Positions 13,971 to 23,761 of a stretch of DNA of 64,000 nt are shown here, piece after piece. The position numbers were made by a program, and so were the translations under genes. Source of the stretch: Candidatus Peribacteria bacterium (GTDB lineage Bacteria; Patescibacteriota; Gracilibacteria; Peribacterales; Peribacteraceae). The stretch lies in contig JBEPVF010000001.1 of assembly GCA_041691135.1 (NCBI GenBank), positions 261,493-325,492 on the forward strand, given 5' to 3'. The number at the start of each line of letters is the position of its first letter. Position 1 is the stretch's first letter. Below the pieces are notes generated by a model. That model saw only the letters and a program-made list of their open reading frames with translations, searched no databases and was not told where the DNA came from.

Positions 13971-14047
13971 GCGCACAGTGTACAGACAATCCGCGATATA
14001 TAGAGCTTATTTGACAGCGGTCGGCCAAAACGTTTGTATAGTGCGGC

Positions 14048-14623
14048 ATGACAAAGGAATCCGGTTTACCACCCACAGAATACCCACGCTCGGCTGATTG
14101 GGCCCTTGTAGAAGCCAAGATCGGATCCGAGATTGCCGGCTATCTACGGATGCTTTCGCCCAGATTACTAATAACTGACGTCTTTGATGACACAACTCAG
14201 TTTTGTTTCTACGGCCAAGTAGACAGGGATGCAATGGCTCTTCTCCTGAGCCAAAACGGACCGGAGGCATTGAAGGGATCAAAACCCCTTTCGCATGCCG
14301 CGCGATTATTTTTACGAGAAGTACAAGAGGCCTTCGTCGTGATACGACAGGCAGAAGTGGTAGGCATAACCGAATTCTTCGTGCATAACAGGCCGGGCGA
14401 TATTCCTACCGTCGACTGGCAACAGGTGCCGCTACACATCAACATTTTTGTCGATACGCACATTCGACCGCAACTTGAAAAAGTCATGGGATTGCACGCC
14501 GTTGATCGTTGGCTGCAAGTCCCACGCGAAAAATGGAACGGCAAGAGTGCCATCGAACTTTTGCAGGATGATCGCGAGGAAGAGGTGTTCAGTGTCATCG
14601 ATTATCTGATCAGTGATTTCTAA
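14048..14623 (+). CDS. Hypothetical protein with C-terminal Xre/MbcA/ParS-type antitoxin domain
   Basis: C-terminus VDRWLQVPREKWNGKSAIELL...EEVFSVIDYL matches the W(L)xxP...G..P/A..LL pattern of the toxin-binding domain. Confidence 0.55.
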   Translation: MTKESGLPPTEYPRSADWALVEAKIGSEIAGYLRMLSPRLLITDVFDDTTQFCFYGQVDRDAMALLLSQNGPEALKGSKPLSHAARLFLREVQEAFVVIRQAEVVGITEFFVHNRPGDIPTVDWQQVPLHINIFVDTHIRPQLEKVMGLHAVDRWLQVPREKWNGKSAIELLQDDREEEVFSVIDYLISDF

Positions 14624-14653
14624 ATTCATGATGACGAACAACTCCTTTATTTC

Positions 14654-14932
14654 TCAATTTATCCGAACTCTTTCACTCGGTAACATACGTCCTTCGAGTA
14701 CCTCCAATAGCAATGCAGAAACTGATACCTTCAATTGACGAATGGTCGACTGCTCTTGCCGATACAAATACAACATGTCTTCTATGGAAGAAGCGGTGGG
14801 TTCTACCGCTGCCGTAAGGAGCATATCGCGCGCAGTCTTGCAAATGCCGAAGATTTGCCCTGCCTCATTTTCCGCCTGAAGATTCTCATGCAATTTTTCC
14901 AGAGCAAACCTTTGAAAATAATCCAGTGGCAT
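14654..14932 (-). CDS. Hypothetical protein
   Basis: 92-aa helical-looking ORF filling the intergenic space, AT-rich. Confidence 0.5.
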   Translation of the reverse strand: MPLDYFQRFALEKLHENLQAENEAGQIFGICKTARDMLLTAAVEPTASSIEDMLYLYRQEQSTIRQLKVSVSALLLEVLEGRMLPSERVRIN

Positions 14933-15054
14933 GCGTGATAGCTTGTCTGTACCGTTTTTTTAGTCAGAGAAATGACTATTTGTTCAAGGTTTTTCATGCC
15001 CCATACGGAAAAACACGCATTTTGCACAATGGAGGTTAATGGTATTGTTTGTGT

Positions 15055-16218
15055 ATGCCCTCGAATGAATTGCTCACACGTGCCGTTTCGGATGTGACTC
15101 CCCGCAAGTTGGCGGAGGAGAAGATCAAATCCGGACAGCCGATGCGTCTATACCTGGGTATTGATCCGACCGGATCCAAGCTCCACCTGGGCCACTCAGT
15201 CCCATTGCGCAAGTTGAGGGCGTTTCAAGATGCCGGGCACCATGTGATTTTTTTGATCGGCAGTTTTACGGCGATGATCGGCGATCCGTCCGGACGCGAC
15301 AAGCAGCGCGAGCCGCTCACCAGGGAAGATGTGATGAAAAACTTTCAGACGTACAAAGATCAAGCGTCCAAAATTCTGGATTTCAATAAAATTGAAGTGG
15401 TTGAAAATCACACATGGCTGGAAAAATTGAAGTTCGACGACATCATCAAATTAGCCAGTAACTTTACAGTGCAGCAGATGCTGGAGCGCGATATGTTCGA
15501 GAAGCGATTGGAGCAGGGCAATCCGATCGGATTGCATGAATTTTTCTACCCGCTGATGGTCGGTTACGATTCGGTGATGCTCGACGTGGATTGTGAACTC
15601 GGCGGCAACGACCAGTACTTCAACATGCTCGCCGGTCGCACGTTGCAGCACGCATTCGGCAAGCGCGAAAAGTTCGTCCTCACCACCAAATTGATCGAAG
15701 GCACTGACGGCCGCAAGATGAGTAAAACCTACGATAACTGCATCTGGATCGATGATTCGGCGACGGATATGTACGGCAAAACATTGTCGATCAAAGATGA
15801 ACTGATCGTGCCATACATGGAATGCCTCACGGATATTCCGATGGAGGAAATCAAAAAAATCGAGAAGGCGATGGAGAAGGGGAGTAATCCCAAGGACTTC
15901 AAGATGCAACTCGCTCGCGCAATCGTCGAATTTTACTACGACAAAGATGCGGCCAAAAAAGCGGAAGAAGAATTCGCAAAAATCTTCAAAGACAAAGGCG
16001 TGCCGGATGATATGCCCGAGATCAAAGCGAAGAAGGGGAGCGGTCTGGTCGATCTGATGGTCACTAATAAACTCGCCCCGTCGAAAGCCGAAGCAAAGCG
16101 ATTGATCGAACAAGGAGGCGTAAAGTTGAACGACGAAACAGTGGTTGCCATGGACGCGACTGCGAAGGAGGGGATTCTGAAAGTAGGGAAGAGAAAATTC
16201 GCGAAAATAATTTTCTAA
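15055..16218 (+). CDS. tyrS: Tyrosine--tRNA ligase
   Basis: YLGIDPT, HIGH-like HLGH, GGNDQ, KMSKT, C-terminal S4 domain. Confidence 0.97.
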   Translation: MPSNELLTRAVSDVTPRKLAEEKIKSGQPMRLYLGIDPTGSKLHLGHSVPLRKLRAFQDAGHHVIFLIGSFTAMIGDPSGRDKQREPLTREDVMKNFQTYKDQASKILDFNKIEVVENHTWLEKLKFDDIIKLASNFTVQQMLERDMFEKRLEQGNPIGLHEFFYPLMVGYDSVMLDVDCELGGNDQYFNMLAGRTLQHAFGKREKFVLTTKLIEGTDGRKMSKTYDNCIWIDDSATDMYGKTLSIKDELIVPYMECLTDIPMEEIKKIEKAMEKGSNPKDFKMQLARAIVEFYYDKDAAKKAEEEFAKIFKDKGVPDDMPEIKAKKGSGLVDLMVTNKLAPSKAEAKRLIEQGGVKLNDETVVAMDATAKEGILKVGKRKFAKIIF

Positions 16219-16221
16219 CAA

Positions 16222-16683
16222 ATGAAAAAGGAGCAACTTGCCTCAATCGGCTTGTCGACGGTAATCAGTCTAATCAGCATAACCTTAGGTTGGTATTTGT
16301 CCGAACAATCTTATAACAAACATTTTTTATTGGACCAGAAATCTCAGATCCTTCAGAAGCGTATTGAGCTGGTTGAAAGAACCACAAAAATTCTTTATCA
16401 AACAACTGGAATTGAAGATTTAGGAAATAAATATCTAACAAAAATTCACTTTGATCCTATAACAAACAAAATTTCATCTGATGATTTATTACTGTCTGAA
16501 AAGTTATCGAATTATTATGGAGACTATGTAAGTGTACTTGAATTAGATCAAATTTTTTTTGGGCCCGAAACAAAAAAATCTATAACTACTCTTTTGGCTG
16601 AAAAAGAACCATTTTGGGCCAAAACAAAAGAAAAAAATGATGCTGTGATTGCAGCTATGACTAATGAATTATATGGGCAGTAA
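16222..16683 (+). CDS. Hypothetical protein with N-terminal TM (AT-rich ORFan)
   Basis: 153-aa ORF starting 3 bp after tyrS, markedly AT-rich. Confidence 0.65.
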   Translation: MKKEQLASIGLSTVISLISITLGWYLSEQSYNKHFLLDQKSQILQKRIELVERTTKILYQTTGIEDLGNKYLTKIHFDPITNKISSDDLLLSEKLSNYYGDYVSVLELDQIFFGPETKKSITTLLAEKEPFWAKTKEKNDAVIAAMTNELYGQ

Positions 16684-16694
16684 AAAAATTGAAT

Positions 16695-16973
16695 TTATTT
16701 CACCTCAACACCCTTCCAAAACGCTACATACCCGGCAATCTCTTTGGCCGCTTCTTTTGGCTCAGCATAATACCAAGCTGCATCCTCGTTGCGCTCACCG
16801 TTCACTTCCACGGTGTAGTAACTGCAAAACCCTTTCCACGGACACGTCGTATGCGTGTCACTGGGCTTCATATATTCCATGTGCACCGATGACGGAGGAA
16901 AGTAGTGATTTCCTTCGATTACAATCGTCTGATCGCTCTCGGCAAGAACGGTGTTGTTCCAAATGGCTTTCAT
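16695..16973 (-). CDS. DUF427 family protein
   Basis: MKAIWNNTVLAES...EGNHYFP...TTCPWKG..SYY...AAWYY.EP. Confidence 0.92.
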   Translation of the reverse strand: MKAIWNNTVLAESDQTIVIEGNHYFPPSSVHMEYMKPSDTHTTCPWKGFCSYYTVEVNGERNEDAAWYYAEPKEAAKEIAGYVAFWKGVEVK

Positions 16974-17179
16974 AAAGCAACTCTAGCATACCTTTCAGAG
17001 GGAAAACATTTCCGCATTCCAGGCTCCTTCATCACAGTAGGACTGTGGACTCCACTGAGGATCATCGGAACGGAGGATGAAATGCGCGTACTCTCCATCC
17101 CAAAAATCCTTAATGAGAATGAGGCCCATGGTTCTCTTTATATATTGTCGCATGCATCGAAAAAGGGGCTGACGTAAGA

Positions 17180-17560
17180 GTGGGAGATATAAATATTCGG
17201 GACATTCAACAAACAACCTCCATACTACTGAGGGAATTGCTCAGTGCTGAGTTACTATTTTCTTCAAATCCAGTAAGTACCGACTTAGATGCAGTACAAG
17301 AAGATCTCCTTACTACAATTGCCCATCATGCATCTTTGCAGTTCTTAGAATTGCTCACGCCGGAAGATCGAGAGCAACTGGAAGCCGAGTGTCAGATTGA
17401 ACGCCAAGCCCAGCAAATGTTGGATTCTATTAATGAAGATGAACCAAGGAACCACGGAAAACCGCCTAAAAATTTCGATGCAGAAGCGGCAAATCTTATC
17501 ATGCTCCGAGAGGACATTATAGATTTCATAAAGGAAAGAATCTGGAAAATTGCTAAATAG
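17180..17560 (+). CDS. Hypothetical acidic helical protein
   Basis: 126-aa ORF with GTG start, AT-rich. Confidence 0.5.
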   Translation: MGDINIRDIQQTTSILLRELLSAELLFSSNPVSTDLDAVQEDLLTTIAHHASLQFLELLTPEDREQLEAECQIERQAQQMLDSINEDEPRNHGKPPKNFDAEAANLIMLREDIIDFIKERIWKIAK

Positions 17561-17573
17561 AAGTGCATTGTTT

Positions 17574-17843
17574 TTATCGCCTGCGCCTGCTCTTTGCACC
17601 GCGATGCACCGGTACATTCTGCGTTTCCATGACATAACGAAGCATCGTAGCATCGATCTCTGTCGCATGATTGCTTTTATAGCGCAGAATGGCCATCAAA
17701 CGAGATCGGATTCTTCTGATTACCAAAGTACGCTGAGTAGCTGTTATGGGAAGCAACAAGTTATTCTGTTTCAGGGCCTCAATGATCCTTTCTTCCGAAA
17801 GAGCAGCAACCCTGATTTTTGCCTCTGCATGCGATAATCCCAT
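17574..17843 (-). CDS. Small basic hypothetical protein, probably co-transcribed with xer
   Basis: ATG 2 bp after the xer stop, 89 aa, Arg-rich. Confidence 0.5.
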   Translation of the reverse strand: MGLSHAEAKIRVAALSEERIIEALKQNNLLLPITATQRTLVIRRIRSRLMAILRYKSNHATEIDATMLRYVMETQNVPVHRGAKSRRRR

Positions 17844-17845
17844 AA

Positions 17846-18784
17846 TCAGTCAGCAGATTTGCGATGAAACTTCTTGTGCACTTCTTTGAGCTGCGTATTC
17901 GTCACGTGCGTGTAGATCTGTGTCGTAGAAAGATCCTTGTGTCCCAACATCTCCTGCACCGAGCGAATATCGGCTCCATTGCGCAATAAATCAGTCGCAA
18001 AAGAGTGACGAAGCGTGTGCGGAGACGGATCGCTGACGATGCCGGCCTGCAACGCGTATTTTTTCACGATTTTGTAGATGCTGATACGTGACAGACGAAA
18101 TTCTTCTCCCGGTGGCATCACATTCACCGCTTTCTGAATATTACGGATAAAGAGAGGGGACAGGGAATCGAGGCGTGCATTCAAATAGAGCTGCACCGAC
18201 TTCACGGCTCCATCAGAGAGAAAAACAACTCGGAGCTTGTTGCGCTTCCCTCGCACGCTCATTTCCCTGGTATCGAAATTCAAATCTTTCCGATTGAGCA
18301 TGCGCAGCTCTGTCAGACGCAGACCGGTTGAAAAAAATAATTCAAGGATCGCCGCGTCGCGCTTGCCTTCTTTGTCACTGGTATCCGGCGCCTTGAGTAA
18401 GCGCTCTATTTCATCCCCGTACAGAACCTTTACCTTCCGTTCTTCTTCTTTAAACCGTGTGATGCGGTCGGGTGGGTAGACGTCCACCTCCTCTTCCTGA
18501 ACTAAGTAGCGAATAAAGGCCCGCAGGACGGTTAAATGATGATTTTTAGTGCGAATCCCCAGCTCACCGTTGCGTTTGGTGCGAAATTCGTGAAGCGCCT
18601 GCTTATAATGACGGACCGATGCCTTGGTGATATCAGAGAAGGTGAGCAGTTCGGACAATTTCAAAAAAAGATCGAGCGATTCATGGTAATTACGGATGGT
18701 CAGTGGTGATTTATTTTCTTCGGCCTGGAGGTAGGAGAGGTAGCGGCCAACAGCCTTCGCGAGGGGAGAACGTTCGGAGGACAT
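17846..18784 (-). CDS. XerC/XerD-like tyrosine recombinase
   Basis: N-terminal SPLTIRNY, then catalytic RDAAILELFFSTGLR, RGK, HTLRHSFAT, LGH and TTQIYTHV. Confidence 0.95.
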   Translation of the reverse strand: MSSERSPLAKAVGRYLSYLQAEENKSPLTIRNYHESLDLFLKLSELLTFSDITKASVRHYKQALHEFRTKRNGELGIRTKNHHLTVLRAFIRYLVQEEEVDVYPPDRITRFKEEERKVKVLYGDEIERLLKAPDTSDKEGKRDAAILELFFSTGLRLTELRMLNRKDLNFDTREMSVRGKRNKLRVVFLSDGAVKSVQLYLNARLDSLSPLFIRNIQKAVNVMPPGEEFRLSRISIYKIVKKYALQAGIVSDPSPHTLRHSFATDLLRNGADIRSVQEMLGHKDLSTTQIYTHVTNTQLKEVHKKFHRKSAD

Positions 18785-18813
18785 ACGCGGAGTGTAGCAG
18801 ATGACAATATTTT

Positions 18814-18841
18814 AGTTAACATAATGCAGTTTATGTTAACT
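18814..18841. other. dif-like recombination site (symmetric, 11-6-11)
   Basis: AGTTAACATAA-TGCAGT-TTATGTTAACT. The arms are perfect inverted repeats and each matches the E. coli XerD arm TTATGTTAAAT at 10/11. Confidence 0.8.
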
Positions 18842-18909
18842 ATCATTCTAAGTATGATTATACATCTGTAGGCCCCTTTCTACAGGTTATTTGTCAAGCG
18901 AGTCCCCTG

Positions 18910-18931
18910 TTATCCACACCCCTGTGTATAG
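18910..18931. promoter_or_regulatory. Pair of inverted DnaA boxes
   Basis: Consensus TTATCCACA at 18910-18918 and TGTGTATAG (rc CTATACACA) at 18923-18931. Confidence 0.6.
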
Positions 18932-19083
18932 ATTCGGAAAAGTTTACTTTCCAATCCTCTTCTGACACTAGACAAAAGATGATAATAATTTTTATTGATA
19001 CAATATGGGAAAGCAGAGGGAAGTCCCCTCCTCTGGAGAAAAAGCCCAAATCAGCGGTTAGATAGCACTTTTTGCCACTGTAT

Positions 19084-19719
19084 TCAGGATTTCTCAAACA
19101 ATCCGTACCACAGAATCGCCAAAGCTTCTCGTAAGACGCTTTTTGCCTCAAAAGGCAGGGCGGCAACTTCTTTGGCTGGGAATGTCGGCAGTGTCCAACC
19201 CTGCTGCTTTGCCAAAAAGCCAATACGGGTCAAATGGTATCGGTCACTGATGGCGATCACGCTCGTGCAATTTCTGGTAAGCGGACGGGTATACAAAATA
19301 TTTTCCTTGGTTGTGGTTGATTGGCTTTCCGCAACCACATCCTGGTGGGGAATATGACGCAAAATTGCATATTGCATCATAATTTGCGCTTCACTCCGCC
19401 GTTGCCTGTCGCCCTTTCCACCGCTCAGAAAAAGCTTGTGCACTTTTCCCTGCTTGTAGAGTTCCACCGCAGTCAGCATTCGACGTTGGATGCCGGGGCC
19501 GCTCTGACTCTCCACGGCATGACCGGTCGAGTCGTACAGCGGATGGACTGCCGCACCGAACACAATGGCGCAGTCGGCAGGGAGCACCGCCGTACCCGAG
19601 AAACCGGCAACGACCAAGCCGACGACATACCCAAATACCACAACGGTGGCGACACAGATTCCGGAGACAAAAATGAGAACTCCTCGCCACCGCCGGTACA
19701 CGGCGACCAGCCACTTCAT
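19084..19719 (-). CDS. YdcF/DUF218 (SanA/ElyC-like) envelope protein
   Basis: TM, AIVFGA, LFLSGG, SEAQIM, E..STTTKEN, SDRYHLTR, RE. Confidence 0.88.
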   Translation of the reverse strand: MKWLVAVYRRWRGVLIFVSGICVATVVVFGYVVGLVVAGFSGTAVLPADCAIVFGAAVHPLYDSTGHAVESQSGPGIQRRMLTAVELYKQGKVHKLFLSGGKGDRQRRSEAQIMMQYAILRHIPHQDVVAESQSTTTKENILYTRPLTRNCTSVIAISDRYHLTRIGFLAKQQGWTLPTFPAKEVAALPFEAKSVLREALAILWYGLFEKS

Positions 19720-21314
19720 TCCTGCACGATCGAAATATTACTCGGAATCGTCGTGATCTTCCCAGTCCACGGCGGCCACAGCGCAATTTCTACCTTTTCG
19801 ACCTCGGGCAGGTTGCGAATGATCTTCACTGCATCGGTGCGATGCAGGCCTACAATGAGTTCGCGTACTTTTTTTGCGAAATTCGCGCCGGTTGGAGTGA
19901 GCGGATCGAGCAGAAATTGTTCCGAGCCGGTAAGGTCGGCCGTACCTTTCACCCAGGTCAGATCGTCGGCAAAATTGATGATCGTGAACTTGAGCCGGTC
20001 GAGCGTCACACTGTCATCGAGCAGAGCTTTGCCGGTCTCGATATGCGCACTCAAGTCGTTTCGCAACATACCGAGAACATCGTTGATATCGAAAGCGACA
20101 ACTTTGTAATCGAGAGCGCCTTCAACAGGCACGGATGTAACTGTCTGGCCCAGAAACTGCGTCGGCAGGACAAAATCGTGATAGTAGATATGCATCAGAT
20201 CCTTGTCGTCGTCTTCGGTAAAGACTCTGAGGCTATGGCCGGGATGCGTGCGATTGTAGTCAGCGACCTGATCATCCACCATCTGACGGGCAGTCTGGAG
20301 CAGATCCTGTTCAAGTTTCTTGCGAGCGGTGTCGATGTCCTTCTGTTGCAGGACAAGCCTGGAAGAAGTGGTGCCCCCGGTCGCCGGTTGCTGGTTCTTG
20401 GCATAAATAATGTCTTTCTGATCCGATCCCAACGCCGGAAAATACCATTGGGTTCCAGCCGGTACATTGCCGCGTGCGCCGATGATCTCGCCGTATTGAT
20501 CGGTGTCTTCCGCAATCGCATTCACCATCGCTGTTCCACTGGCCGTCAGCACTGCGGAATTCTGCAGGCGAAAGACCAATCCCTGCGCATTCACCAGCCG
20601 ACTGTCTTTGCGGATACTTACGGAATCGCGAGTTGTATTGATTATTTTCATCCTTACATGTGACGGCGTTCCGGTGAATTGCTGGGTGATCTGATCGAAC
20701 GTGATCGTGCGTTTGGTGCTGACTTTGATGGGAATCAGGGGCGCATGACGTGCCAGAGGAGACACCTGCAATTGCGCGCCGCTCTGGGTCAGGTAAATAT
20801 TAACCGTTTGATTGACCGAGTCTTGGCGGGGCCAGATACGTACCTCGGCCGATGGCAGCAGACGCAGCACAACGAACAGAAAGAGAAGAACACTGGTGCC
20901 GATAAGCACCCAGATACGAAGCTTGGGAAGTGACAACAGGCCGATGGACTGAAGCCGCGTACGCAGTTGTTGGCTCCACAAGTGCGGCGAAAAAAGCCGT
21001 ACTGCTTCGTCGAGTTGCGAATTATCCTTCAGAAGTTGGCGCACCGCCGATAACCTGTCTACCACTTCTACATTCTGCCGCCGGCATTCTTCGGCTATCT
21101 GCGGTTGTTTGGTTGCCACCATCAAACGGTCTTTGAGTGTGCCGCATTCGTAGAAGAACATTTTCCGATCTTTTTCGTGGGCCTGAAGGGACAAGTGATC
21201 CTGCGGAGTGAAAATCAGCAGTACATCGCCCACGCTTTTTTGAATGCGCTTGAGAAACGCCGACCATGGTTCCTCTTCTCGCCGAAACAGGACAGTGCGG
21301 GTCGGAGTGGCCAT
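19716..21314 (-). CDS. Conserved hypothetical single-TM protein with baseplate-J-like segment
   Basis: Central TM. IINTT...LV...GLVF...GARGNVPAGT...N..PATGG resembles the baseplate J-like region of CPR proteins. Confidence 0.6.
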   Translation of the reverse strand: MATPTRTVLFRREEEPWSAFLKRIQKSVGDVLLIFTPQDHLSLQAHEKDRKMFFYECGTLKDRLMVATKQPQIAEECRRQNVEVVDRLSAVRQLLKDNSQLDEAVRLFSPHLWSQQLRTRLQSIGLLSLPKLRIWVLIGTSVLLFLFVVLRLLPSAEVRIWPRQDSVNQTVNIYLTQSGAQLQVSPLARHAPLIPIKVSTKRTITFDQITQQFTGTPSHVRMKIINTTRDSVSIRKDSRLVNAQGLVFRLQNSAVLTASGTAMVNAIAEDTDQYGEIIGARGNVPAGTQWYFPALGSDQKDIIYAKNQQPATGGTTSSRLVLQQKDIDTARKKLEQDLLQTARQMVDDQVADYNRTHPGHSLRVFTEDDDKDLMHIYYHDFVLPTQFLGQTVTSVPVEGALDYKVVAFDINDVLGMLRNDLSAHIETGKALLDDSVTLDRLKFTIINFADDLTWVKGTADLTGSEQFLLDPLTPTGANFAKKVRELIVGLHRTDAVKIIRNLPEVEKVEIALWPPWTGKITTIPSNISIVQE

Positions 21315-21353
21315 GGAAAAAGTCTGAGGAGAGGAAGATCGCGGCAGAGAATA

Positions 21354-22547
21354 CTACGCGCGAAGGGCGACAAGAGCAGGAAGCTCCTCGCCGGCGATGA
21401 ACTCGAGCATCGCCCCGCCTCCGGTACTGACAAACGTGTAGGCATCCAGAGGATACTGATACCGCACGTGAAAATCGATCGTATCACCGCCGCCGATGAT
21501 AGTCGTGGCGCCGCGCTGAGTGGCGCGCTGCAAAGCTTCGGCGATGCGCTTGGTGGCGTGCGAAAAGCGATTCACTTCATAGAAGCCCAATGGACCGTTC
21601 CACACAATCGTCGCAGCTTTCTCAATCACACGACAATACCGATCGATCGTTACCTTGCCGATATCGAACATGCTCATGTCGCCCATAACGTCTTCGACCG
21701 GCAGATCGATCTTCTCGGCTCCGTCCTCGGGACTTGTGGCAACCACTGCATCACGGGGAATATGAATCACCGCATGACCCTCCTGTTCGGACTCCAGCAT
21801 AAACTCCTGCGCCTGTTCCACGAACTCCTGTTCGTACTTGGACGTTCCCACGTCGAAACCGCGAGCCGCGACGAACGTGTTCGCAATGCAACCGCCCAGC
21901 AGAATATCGTCTCCCCGCGACAGGAAACGCTGAATCACCGGTATCTTGGTTTCCATTTTGGAACCGCTGATGATGAGTGCCAGCGGGCGTGCAGGATCAT
22001 CGATGATCCGCGAGAGGTTGGTGAGCTCTTTCTCGAGCTGCAAACCCGCGTATGCCGGTAGCAGATGCGCCAATGCCACCATACTGGCATGAGTGCGATG
22101 ACAATTGGTGAATGCGTCGTTGACATAAACATCTCCCAACGCCGCCAGTTGTTTGGCAAAGCCTTCGTCGTTCTTTTCTTCACCCGGTTCGTAGCGCAGA
22201 TTCTCCAGAAGCAAAACTTCTCCCGGCTTGAGTTTTTTTGCGGCCGCCTCGGCATCGGGACCCACTATGGCTTCGCTGAAGTGAACCGGCACTCCCAGAA
22301 GTCGTTCGAGTTCGGGAACAATCGGCGCCTGACTGAAAGCCGGATCGCGTTTTCCTTTGGGACGCCCCTGATGCGACAGCAGAATAAGCGCTCCTTCTTT
22401 CAAAATACGCCGCATCGTCGGTACTATTGCCTCGATGCGCTCCGTTTCCATCACTTTTCCATTCTCGATCTTTACATCGAACCCCGCCCGCAACAGCACG
22501 CGCTTTCCCTTCATGTCGGCCTGATCCAGTGTGCGGTAGTTCGTCAT
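21354..22547 (-). CDS. pgk: Phosphoglycerate kinase
   Basis: GKRVLLR, SHQGRP, LLENLR, YVNDAF, WNGPLG, GGGDT, STGGGA. Confidence 0.97.
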   Translation of the reverse strand: MTNYRTLDQADMKGKRVLLRAGFDVKIENGKVMETERIEAIVPTMRRILKEGALILLSHQGRPKGKRDPAFSQAPIVPELERLLGVPVHFSEAIVGPDAEAAAKKLKPGEVLLLENLRYEPGEEKNDEGFAKQLAALGDVYVNDAFTNCHRTHASMVALAHLLPAYAGLQLEKELTNLSRIIDDPARPLALIISGSKMETKIPVIQRFLSRGDDILLGGCIANTFVAARGFDVGTSKYEQEFVEQAQEFMLESEQEGHAVIHIPRDAVVATSPEDGAEKIDLPVEDVMGDMSMFDIGKVTIDRYCRVIEKAATIVWNGPLGFYEVNRFSHATKRIAEALQRATQRGATTIIGGGDTIDFHVRYQYPLDAYTFVSTGGGAMLEFIAGEELPALVALRA

Positions 22548-22669
22548 GTGTTCCTGATTGTAGAGAAAGGGTTGTATGTTTGGAATACCGCAACGGGAAG
22601 AAACCGAGGCAACCAATGGAATCGACGGTTCCCTCTTCCACTCTGCCGCCTCACCAGTATCATAGTTCC

Positions 22670-23761
22670 ATGTCACCCCTGCTCTTCATTCCGTTGTTGG
22701 CGCTTGCCTGCTCGGTCATTGGATACGCAGCAACGCTCAAAATTTTCCCCAGGCTGGGATTGGTTGATTTTCCAAACCGCTACGGACTCAGTCGCACACC
22801 TATTCCATATCCGGCCGGCATCGTGGCCGTCGTTGTTTTTCTCATCTTCTTCGGCATCGTAGAGCCTACGACGGAAAAGAAAATCGGCGTGATTATAGGA
22901 ATCATTCTGCTGACGATATTCTCATTCATCGATGACCGCCGGCCGCTGCCCTCGTGGATACGCTTATTGGTACACATCGCGATTGCGTGTCTGATCTTTG
23001 CAACCGGTACGCGCATCTATTCGCTCACCAATCCGTTGGCCGGGTCACTGCAAGTCGGCGGCCATTTTATACTGAATGATATTTTTCAACTCGATACGAT
23101 CAAGATTCTGGTGCCGCACTTCGGATTACTTCCCGTTGCCAGCGGACTCTTCACGTTGCTGTGGCTCGGGATGACCATCAATGCTCTCAACTGGTTCGAC
23201 GGCATCTCGGGCCAGGTGAGCCTGCTTTCGACCATCGGCTTCTTCACCATCGGCTTTTTGTCGCTGAGCGATCGGGTCAACGAACCGTCGTTGGCGCTCC
23301 TCGCCTTCCTGCTCGGCGCACTTGCCTTCGGTTCGCTCATGTTTGATTTTCCGCCGCCCAAGCTGCTGCTCGGCGATACGGGCGCCATGTTCTTCGGTCT
23401 GATGCTCGGCGTCCTCACTATCTATTCCGGAGGAAAAGTGGCAACCATGTTCCTCGTGCTTGGCGTTCCGCTGATTGATTCGGTACTCGTGGTGATCCGA
23501 CGCCTTCTGAAAGGCAAATCCATCTTCCAGGGCAATACGCGCGATGAGCACCTCCATCATCGCCTGCTGCAGAAAGGCTGGACTCCTCGCCAGGTGCTCT
23601 GCCTCACCGCGGCCCTGGGAGCCAGCTTCGGCATCATTGCTCTGTTTTTGGATACCCTCTCCAAGTTTCTCGCCGCCGTTCTTCTTTTTCTGATCATGCT
23701 CCTGCTGTCGCAGTACTCCCGGCCGCGGCCGCAAGAATCTATTGACCCACGCCCGCATTAA
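22670..23761 (+). CDS. MraY/WecA/TagO family UDP-GlcNAc:undecaprenyl-P GlcNAc-1-P transferase
   Basis: Polytopic protein with IDD, NALNWFDG, LLGDTGA and HLHHRL motifs. Confidence 0.9.
   Translation: MSPLLFIPLLALACSVIGYAATLKIFPRLGLVDFPNRYGLSRTPIPYPAGIVAVVVFLIFFGIVEPTTEKKIGVIIGIILLTIFSFIDDRRPLPSWIRLLVHIAIACLIFATGTRIYSLTNPLAGSLQVGGHFILNDIFQLDTIKILVPHFGLLPVASGLFTLLWLGMTINALNWFDGISGQVSLLSTIGFFTIGFLSLSDRVNEPSLALLAFLLGALAFGSLMFDFPPPKLLLGDTGAMFFGLMLGVLTIYSGGKVATMFLVLGVPLIDSVLVVIRRLLKGKSIFQGNTRDEHLHHRLLQKGWTPRQVLCLTAALGASFGIIALFLDTLSKFLAAVLLFLIMLLLSQYSRPRPQESIDPRPH

Follow-up and report, generated by a model that had tools for sequence, protein, structure and literature searches.

The question raised by this locus is whether a perfectly symmetric palindrome lying immediately upstream of a xer gene, in a bacterium of the candidate phyla radiation (CPR), represents the chromosomal dif site of the organism, and whether a single Xer recombinase, the product of the adjacent gene, acts on it. 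The locus is found in a stretch of 64,000 nucleotides from Candidatus Peribacteria bacterium, denoted here as the window, which corresponds to G000:C1:261493-325492, G000 being this genome and C1 a contig of its assembly (35 contigs, 1,739,992 bases, completeness 92.28%). Judging from sequence analysis, the 28-bp palindrome is very probably the chromosomal dif of this Peribacteria-type CPR bacterium, and the adjoining gene would encode the single Xer that acts on it. A preliminary description of this DNA, made from its letters, had proposed a CPR single-Xer/dif module, and the analysis agreed with it: one Xer-like gene was identified, the site was found at all 18 orthologous loci, and it coincided with a switch in the polarity of the hexamer AGGGGA.

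The site, AGTTAACATAA-TGCAGT-TTATGTTAACT (full 28-mer, AGTTAACATAATGCAGTTTATGTTAACT), consists of two arms forming a perfect palindrome, in which all 11 arm positions pair (22 of 22 bases), and the symmetry reaches one base further, with T at position 18813 and A at position 18842. Between the arms lies an asymmetric 6-bp spacer, which reads TGCAGT on the plus strand and ACTGCA on the strand of xer; this gene is encoded on the minus strand with its ATG 29 nt away from the site. This symmetric 11-6-11 element, its one-base-longer symmetry and its distance to the xer start were seen as previously described. By the criteria of PMC2731167, a dif site is expected to span about 28 bp in an 11-6-11 layout, to be non-coding and to have a G+C content below that of the genome; the palindrome shows this layout, is intergenic and contains G or C at 7 of its 28 bases (25%, versus 51% for contig C1). 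Its arm TTATGTTAACT is identical at 10 of 11 bases to the E. coli XerD arm, TTATGTTAAAT, taken as printed in Table 1 of PMC2731167, and both arms carry this XerD type, as had been claimed. The pattern gave one match in the window at up to three mismatches, versus none in 100 shuffles, and a genome-wide check for other copies of the 28-mer found no second one in the whole assembly at up to five mismatches over the 22 arm positions. Two matches with six arm mismatches (C5:63092 and C28:2984) look like chance, neither a flanking repeat nor a further copy of the site was found in G000, and an Rfam search of window positions 14000-23000 yielded no match at E values up to 0.1.

The product of the adjacent gene matched the Pfam catalytic domain PF00589 with 149.8 bits (gathering cut-off 27.1) and the N-terminal SAM-like domain PF02899 with 40.5 bits (cut-off 22.3). 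Its scores on the NCBIfam models for XerD (TIGR02225, 244.9 bits, cut-off 329.6) and XerC (TIGR02224, 239.7 bits, cut-off 335.15) were below the respective cut-offs, as was the 229.9 bits obtained with the general Xer model, which also has a curated cut-off. The nearest solved structures were E. coli XerD (1a0p, 130.6 bits), followed by two XerA proteins (111.1 and 101.7 bits) and XerH (5jjv, 53.9 bits). Residues R156, K180, H256, R259, H282 and Y291 were invariant across 17 orthologues and aligned with identical residues of XerD 1a0p; the catalytic motif of tyrosine recombinases is given as R-K-H-R-H/W-Y in PMC5357621. The best 120 database matches listed were all at least 70% identical to the protein, and those 70-79% identical bear the names Candidatus Peribacteria, Peregrinibacteria or Peribacteraceae, supporting the attribution of the DNA to a CPR organism.

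Conservation of the site was evaluated by searching the Xer protein against 41 genomes, made up of G000 plus 40 relatives belonging to its genus, family or class. The best matches comprised 18 at 65-100% identity, 19 at 38-53%, two that were only weak and two genomes with none. The check upstream of the xer orthologues, which the preliminary description had left to be made, turned out in favor of conservation, the site being present in all 18 loci with a Xer at least 65% identical, at 3-165 nt from the chosen start codon. Arm positions 3-11 were symmetric in 14-18 of the 18 loci and the outer two positions varied. At position 4, the T.A pair was replaced by C.G in four loci, and at position 7, C.G was replaced by G.C in three, one more locus being altered on one side only. 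The spacer read AATGCA in 10 of the 18 loci, and its orientation relative to xer was always the same. When a 16-base core pattern was searched allowing 0-1 mismatch, matches adjoining xer were recovered in 13 genomes. In the Xer tree, a long branch with 100% support separated the proteins with a linked site from the others.

Outside this group, no dif-like site appeared among the palindrome-scan lines listed for 12 unlinked xer loci (Xer 40-46% identical), a scan of the unlinked type that left aside seven of the best matches at 38-53% (G027, G031, G032, G034, G038, G039 and G040). Likewise, no 11-6-11 dif-type palindrome was found in the 400 nt upstream of xer in 29 loci (L035-L063), nearly all with CPR titles, which were the first 29 of the 80 distant relatives listed (Xer 33-49% identical). 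One of these loci, L063 from candidate division WWE3 (PEYT01000010.1), has a perfect 11-7-11 palindrome, AAGTTAACTTA-AGTAATT-TAAGTTAACTT, 131 nt upstream of a xer whose product is 41% identical, possibly a further example of a linked site, outside the group studied here. As a separate observation, several Xer hits belonging to other families of the class (for instance, G034:C31:1985-2854) were broken only by TGA, six times in G034, a pattern consistent with a genetic code in which TGA specifies an amino acid there; for the genes of the window itself, table 11 works well.

The position of the site on the chromosome was approached through the polarity of AGGGGA, a hexamer chosen on contigs C3, C4 and C5 oriented by skew, C1 being kept out of the choice. 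On those three contigs its occurrences were distributed 99:14 in favor of the leading strand, versus an expected share of 0.58 from base skew and a median of 0.60 for 59 hexamers of the same G/C content. The bias was alike in genes of either strand (on C3, 31:2 in plus-strand and 23:0 in minus-strand genes) and is therefore not a coding effect. On C1, the plus to minus ratio was 85:17 to the left of the site (C1:280306) and 3:32 to the right (Fisher p = 1.4e-15), and when 1600 hexamers were ranked by how well they switch there, AGGGGA came first. Its cumulative maximum fell between C1:280254 and 280395 (window 18762-18903), an interval of 141 bp that holds the site. The same behavior was found in two other genera. 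In G014, with the site at C1:404443, the counts were 118:15 on the left and 4:39 on the right, the switch occupied 404204-405137 (933 bp), and AGGGGA was again the top hexamer when picked de novo. In G005, with the site at C2:86382, the counts were 52:4 and 5:51, and the site falls between the last plus-strand AGGGGA and a run of minus-strand ones. Since the switch brackets the site and recurs at it in two other genera, motif polarity places the site at the terminus and identifies it as the predicted terminal dif. Polar motifs that guide FtsK point at dif in other bacteria, as described in PMC3384302, and by analogy AGGGGA may be guessed to be a candidate FtsK guide motif. Across five genomes of two families (G000, G014:C1, G005:C2, G008:C11 and G026:C1), the leading-strand share of AGGGGA was about 0.88, with a switch at the terminus in each.

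As for the number of recombinases, the count of Xer paralogues gave three PF00589 matches in the assembly, of which one is Xer-like, namely, the product of the gene beside the site. The two remaining candidates for a second Xer were discarded: a 213-aa open reading frame (ORF) on C2 carries the catalytic domain only, and the recombinase on C28, a contig of 5.6 kb, scored 34.1 bits and lacks the SAM-like domain. The latter, a weak tyrosine-recombinase ORF, adjoins a 371-aa ORF that has a YVDD segment and no Pfam match, a unit (L003 513-2581) that may be retroelement-like or represent foreign DNA in the bin. Of the 17 linked-form relatives, 12 showed a single Xer-like match, and three of these (G003, G019 and G023) are rated 100% complete; the other five had extra tyrosine-recombinase matches (27-34% identity) that are not common to the clade. 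The genome also encodes FtsK, a protein of 748 aa on C23 with alpha, motor and gamma domains, the last one scoring 82.3 bits versus a cut-off of 30.6. A complex prediction combining Xer residues 115-312 with FtsK residues 672-748 gave a score of 0.02 and a mark of 0.32, which counts neither way.

A sister arrangement was found in G008, a genome of the same family whose Xer is only 40% identical. Its xer gene lies at C11:256,289, 411 kb away from a dif candidate, ATAATGTACAA-GATACA-TTGTGCATGAT, which is located at C11:668,642 (L156 2084-2111) and is symmetric at 9 of 11 arm positions. The gene order around this candidate consists of a homologue of the gene at window positions 19716-21314, a DUF218 gene, the intergenic stretch holding the candidate and a convergent tyrS, with no xer there, and AGGGGA switches at 668,513-668,844 (73:7 on the left, 3:24 on the right). 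The finding of the same DUF218-tyrS slot at the switch in a genome with no xer in it implies that the terminus slot is older than the linkage. In G026, from another family of the class, the switch lies at C1:237,175-238,221 and the interval holds ACTTCGCACAA-TATACC-TTGTACGAATA (C1:237351), with xer on the other contig; a sequence at C1:163,991 of this genome had also been considered as dif and was rejected because AGGGGA switches at the former interval instead. The G008 and G026 candidates have different inner arms, ACAA-N6-TTGT. The linked lineage differs from the G008/G026 type in both arms and recombinase, and xer either moved into the slot or was replaced.

The region between the DUF218 gene and xer holds the site together with candidate promoter elements and a DnaA box. 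The hexamer TACACT (minus strand, 18796 to 18791) is found 6 nt before the xer ATG; TTAACT, the six bases that close an arm, precedes it by 17 nt, so that the pair spans 18819 to 18791. The preliminary description had taken TACACT as the -10 element and had placed the site over the -35 region; the positions are as stated, but TTAACT-17-TACACT agrees with the sigma-70 consensus at 8 of 12 positions, short of the 9 of 12 set as the threshold of the promoter scan. An extended -10 candidate, TGTATAAT (18864 to 18857), lies upstream of the site and is also present in the congener locus L006. In addition, a TTWTNCACA box, with the sequence TTATCCACA or TTTTCCACA, was present in the 300 nt preceding the xer start in 13 of the 18 linked loci (L005-L022) and at none of 12 unlinked xer genes. 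The approximately 5.4 kb upstream of the linked xer genes contained 15 boxes, versus 6 in the remaining 62 kb or so of these loci, and the G008 dif locus had none. From this distribution, it follows that the box goes with the promoter region of linked xer genes rather than with dif itself, which raises the possibility of a control of xer by DnaA.

These observations can be confronted with other explanations. It could be argued that the palindrome acts solely as an operator for transcriptional control, by Xer or by another dimeric regulator, and never undergoes recombination, a different sequence serving as dif. Such a role would suit a site with symmetric arms, typical of operators, that precedes the xer start in every one of the 18 linked loci and overlaps the weak -35/-10 candidate. 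Nevertheless, it would leave the 11-6-11 layout and the 10 of 11 match to the XerD arm without a reason, as well as the location of the site within the AGGGGA switch interval in G000 and G014, and also in G005; the assembly yielded no further dif-like sequence, and in G008 the DUF218-tyrS slot holds a different palindrome at the switch, with no xer beside it, which argues that the slot is that of dif. The operator explanation is consequently regarded as very unlikely. A comparably low probability is given to the notion that two recombinases operate as in XerCD, the partner gene lying in the unassembled 8% of the genome. The completeness of the assembly and the extra matches of five linked-form relatives leave some room for it, but identical arms offer no distinct site for a partner, most linked-form relatives, including three complete ones, have a single match, and the extra genes of those five are not shared by the clade.

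Least probable of the three is that xer and its site travel as a mobile module, or serve an integrated element as its attachment site, instead of being a resident system for dimer resolution. The description of XerS/difSL as a module (PMC5357621), the long branch that sets the linked Xer proteins apart from the other Xer of the class, and the variable gene content downstream of xer could be seen in this light. In contrast, the order DUF218-site-xer is kept in 14 of 18 loci, the same slot holds the dif candidate of G008, the site lies at the polarity switch in three genera, and neither a second copy nor a flanking repeat was found in G000; these features, taken together, make a mobile element hard to sustain.

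A number of points nonetheless weigh against the identification of the palindrome as the dif of a single Xer. A second Xer could sit in the missing part of the assembly, and the start codons of xer are uncertain in several of the 18 loci. The loci with changed arms belong to one subclade of the Xer tree and, therefore, each compensated change amounts to about one event, not many. A second dif-like sequence away from xer, with one core mismatch, exists in two relatives (G010:C44:9265-9286 and G018:C5:15523-15544), so that the site is not single-copy in every genome; these sequences may belong to a plasmid or an integrated element that makes use of Xer, or they may match by chance. GC skew, which the preliminary description had put forward together with motif polarity as a marker of the terminus, fits only roughly, in contrast with the AGGGGA switch that brackets the site. 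Most of 0-280 kb of C1 has positive skew and the rest of the contig negative skew, but the cumulative curve reaches its local maximum at C1:271,703, at a distance of 8.6 kb from the site, and its highest point on the whole contig at 158 kb, owing to the negative skew of the 190-232 kb region of C1; GC skew alone was discarded as a terminus marker on this contig for being too weak. The promoter scan (at least 9 of 12 sigma-70 positions) listed neither TTAACT-17-TACACT nor TGTATAAT. Finally, the guide role of AGGGGA is guessed from polarity, and what is proposed about Xer binding, catalysis, FtsK dependence and autoregulation is likewise based on sequences. Two peculiarities of skew may be recorded here: the C1:190000-232000 region, in spite of its negative GC skew, carries AGGGGA at 17:2 in favor of the plus strand, and C6:20000-50000 shows a very strong positive GC skew (0.09-0.22).

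If the palindrome is indeed dif and is served by the single Xer, the reaction could be envisaged as follows. On each dif copy, the two identical XerD-type arms would be occupied by two Xer monomers. The two copies present in a chromosome dimer would meet at the division septum, probably brought together by FtsK, which would read AGGGGA pointing at dif from both replichores, and a tetramer of one and the same Xer protein would then exchange both pairs of strands over the 6-bp spacer. With symmetric arms, the alignment of the two sites could be set by nothing but the asymmetric spacer, the orientation of which is conserved. Moreover, Xer bound at the site may limit its own transcription, since the site lies in the xer promoter or leader, this position being the sole argument for such autoregulation.

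The location of dnaA deserves separate consideration. As had been pointed out, the gene is close to the site, at a distance of 28.6 kb, within the right replichore, a fact deemed unexpected if dnaA marks the origin and dif the terminus. That premise did not hold. No switch of either GC skew or AGGGGA polarity was found at dnaA, and the sole cluster of DnaA boxes in the assembly (seven boxes in 200 bp, five of them perfect; C4:85393-85587, L143 4393-4587) immediately precedes dnaN and coincides with the change of the GC skew of C4 from negative to positive. Based on this, oriC is likely to be the dnaN-linked cluster, unlinked to dnaA, which would have moved, and the distance between dnaA and the site is explained because dnaA is not an origin marker here. 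In relatives, that distance is 34 kb in G014 (dnaA at C1:370231), 35 kb in G015 (C3:45488) and 60 kb in G005 (C2:146012), and the gene and the site are on different contigs in G002 and G003. A dnaA so close to the terminus (29-60 kb in four genomes of the family) is unusual.

With respect to the remaining neighbors, the features of the window are collected in the table below. By tblastn, the DUF218 gene was found upstream of the site in 14 of the 18 linked loci, and tyrS-like ORFs were found downstream of xer in L011, L013 and L019, the stretch between xer and tyrS differing among relatives. The 89-aa ORF was the candidate for a small basic gene belonging to the module. The ORF exists, but tblastn detected no counterpart of it in any of the other 17 linked loci, including that of a congener with a Xer 91% identical, and it matched only itself among 5.8 billion proteins; it was therefore rejected as part of the module and is regarded as an orphan.

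Features of the xer/dif locus and its surroundings (positions in the window).
Feature	Position	Strand	Evidence or remark
tyrS, convergent with xer	15049-16218	+	TIGR00234, 394.1 bits versus cut-off 113.8; conserved neighbor on the xer side
89-aa ORF	17574-17843	-	No Pfam or NCBIfam match
xer, 312-aa Xer-family tyrosine recombinase	17846-18784	-	Pfam, NCBIfam, catalytic residues
Last plus-strand AGGGGA before the site	18762-18767	+	Left replichore, points at the site
DUF218-xer intergenic region	18785-19083	-	Holds the site and xer promoter candidates
Putative dif-type site, 11-6-11	18814-18841	no strand	Sequence, uniqueness, conservation in 18/18 loci, AGGGGA switch
First minus-strand AGGGGA after the site	18903-18908	-	Right replichore, points at the site
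Perfect DnaA box TTATCCACA	18910-18918	+	69 nt from the site; the assembly has 12 perfect boxes in all, this one included
DUF218-family gene	19084-19719	-	PF02698, 89.9 bits; conserved neighbor on the far side of the site
dnaA	47442-48938	-	TIGR00362, 468.9 bits versus cut-off 343.9

Regarding the significance of these findings, a literature search found no paper joining chromosome dimer resolution with CPR bacteria and describing a site (supplementary files were outside its scope), and this would therefore be a first concrete dif/Xer assignment for a CPR lineage. In practical terms, the site would provide a sequence marker of the terminus and the dnaN-linked DnaA-box cluster one of the origin, both useful for assembly checks and for growth-rate estimates from metagenomes. 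The tool GRiD takes dnaA as being near the origin and uses dnaA and dif as coverage markers, according to PMC6251912; the first assumption fails in this family, and dnaA would mislead origin-finding tools. The existence of two Xer/dif forms in one family, in the same chromosomal slot, offers a natural comparison for the co-change of recombinase and site, and one protein with perfectly symmetric arms would be a simple substrate for learning how a spacer by itself dictates in which order and direction strands are exchanged. A more far-reaching possibility, considered rather improbable, is that dimer resolution was rebuilt in place within one CPR family: the DUF218-tyrS terminus slot would have been kept, with ACAA/TTGT arms and an unlinked xer swapped for XerD-type arms and an adjoining, diverged xer under a DnaA box, and with dnaA 29-60 kb from the terminus. 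Were this true, both the expression of Xer and the dosage of DnaA would be tied to the close of the replication cycle, and the whole class would share AGGGGA as its FtsK guide motif.

The proposed system can finally be compared with those already known. Cre/loxP also uses one recombinase and identical inverted arms, with an asymmetric spacer that alone gives direction. However, it is a plasmid-maintenance system of a phage with a 13-8-13 site; it is not Xer, has no link to FtsK and is not at a terminus. XerL of Legionellales is a further single-recombinase system. With XerCD/dif, the system of E. coli and most bacteria, the site shares the length, layout, low G+C, non-coding nature, terminal position and a near-identical XerD arm, and XerD is the closest solved protein; in contrast, XerCD involves two paralogous recombinases, two different arms and unlinked genes, whereas here there is one gene, linked to a site with identical arms. 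Proteobacterial dif sites have 16.3 +/- 3.0 of their 28 bases in palindrome, as given in PMC2731167, compared with 22 of 22 arm bases in this case.

Closer in organization is XerS/difSL, found in streptococci and lactococci and reported (PMC5357621, PMC1914069 and PMC2965235) to consist of one recombinase with its site directly beside the gene, as a module at the terminus controlled by FtsK. The locus described here resembles it in having one recombinase and a site adjoining the gene at the predicted terminus, in a genome that encodes FtsK. Yet difSL has 31 bp, an 11-bp centre and unequal arms (PMC5357621), as opposed to 28 bp, 11-6-11 and identical arms, and the protein reaches only 111.8 bits on the XerS model (NF003462, cut-off 267). 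XerH/difH, known from Helicobacter and Campylobacter, is likewise a system with one recombinase, whose site is linked to the gene in most epsilon-proteobacterial species (PMC2731167), but XerH is only a distant relative of the protein (53.9 bits for 5jjv versus 130.6 for E. coli XerD). Archaeal XerA/dif combines one recombinase with 28-bp sites of 11-6-11 inverted repeats, forms a module in some species and shows polar motifs skewed toward dif; XerA is reported to be FtsK-independent, archaea having no FtsK (both from PMC5357621), whereas this genome encodes an FtsK with a gamma domain, and the protein scores 203 bits on the XerA model (NF040815), under the cut-off of 220. As to CPR bacteria, Smyshlyaev et al. 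(2021) described a 'Cand' subgroup of Xer-related recombinases from candidate phyla and considered that class-specific simple recombinases may replace Xer; the accessible part of that work (PMC8138268) names no recombination site for the subgroup. Linked single-Xer/dif modules are therefore known already, as XerS, XerH and some XerA. With one Xer gene and a site linked to it, 29 nt away here and adjoining in all 18 loci, the system proposed for these Peribacteria is another one, with canonical XerD-type arms on both sides.

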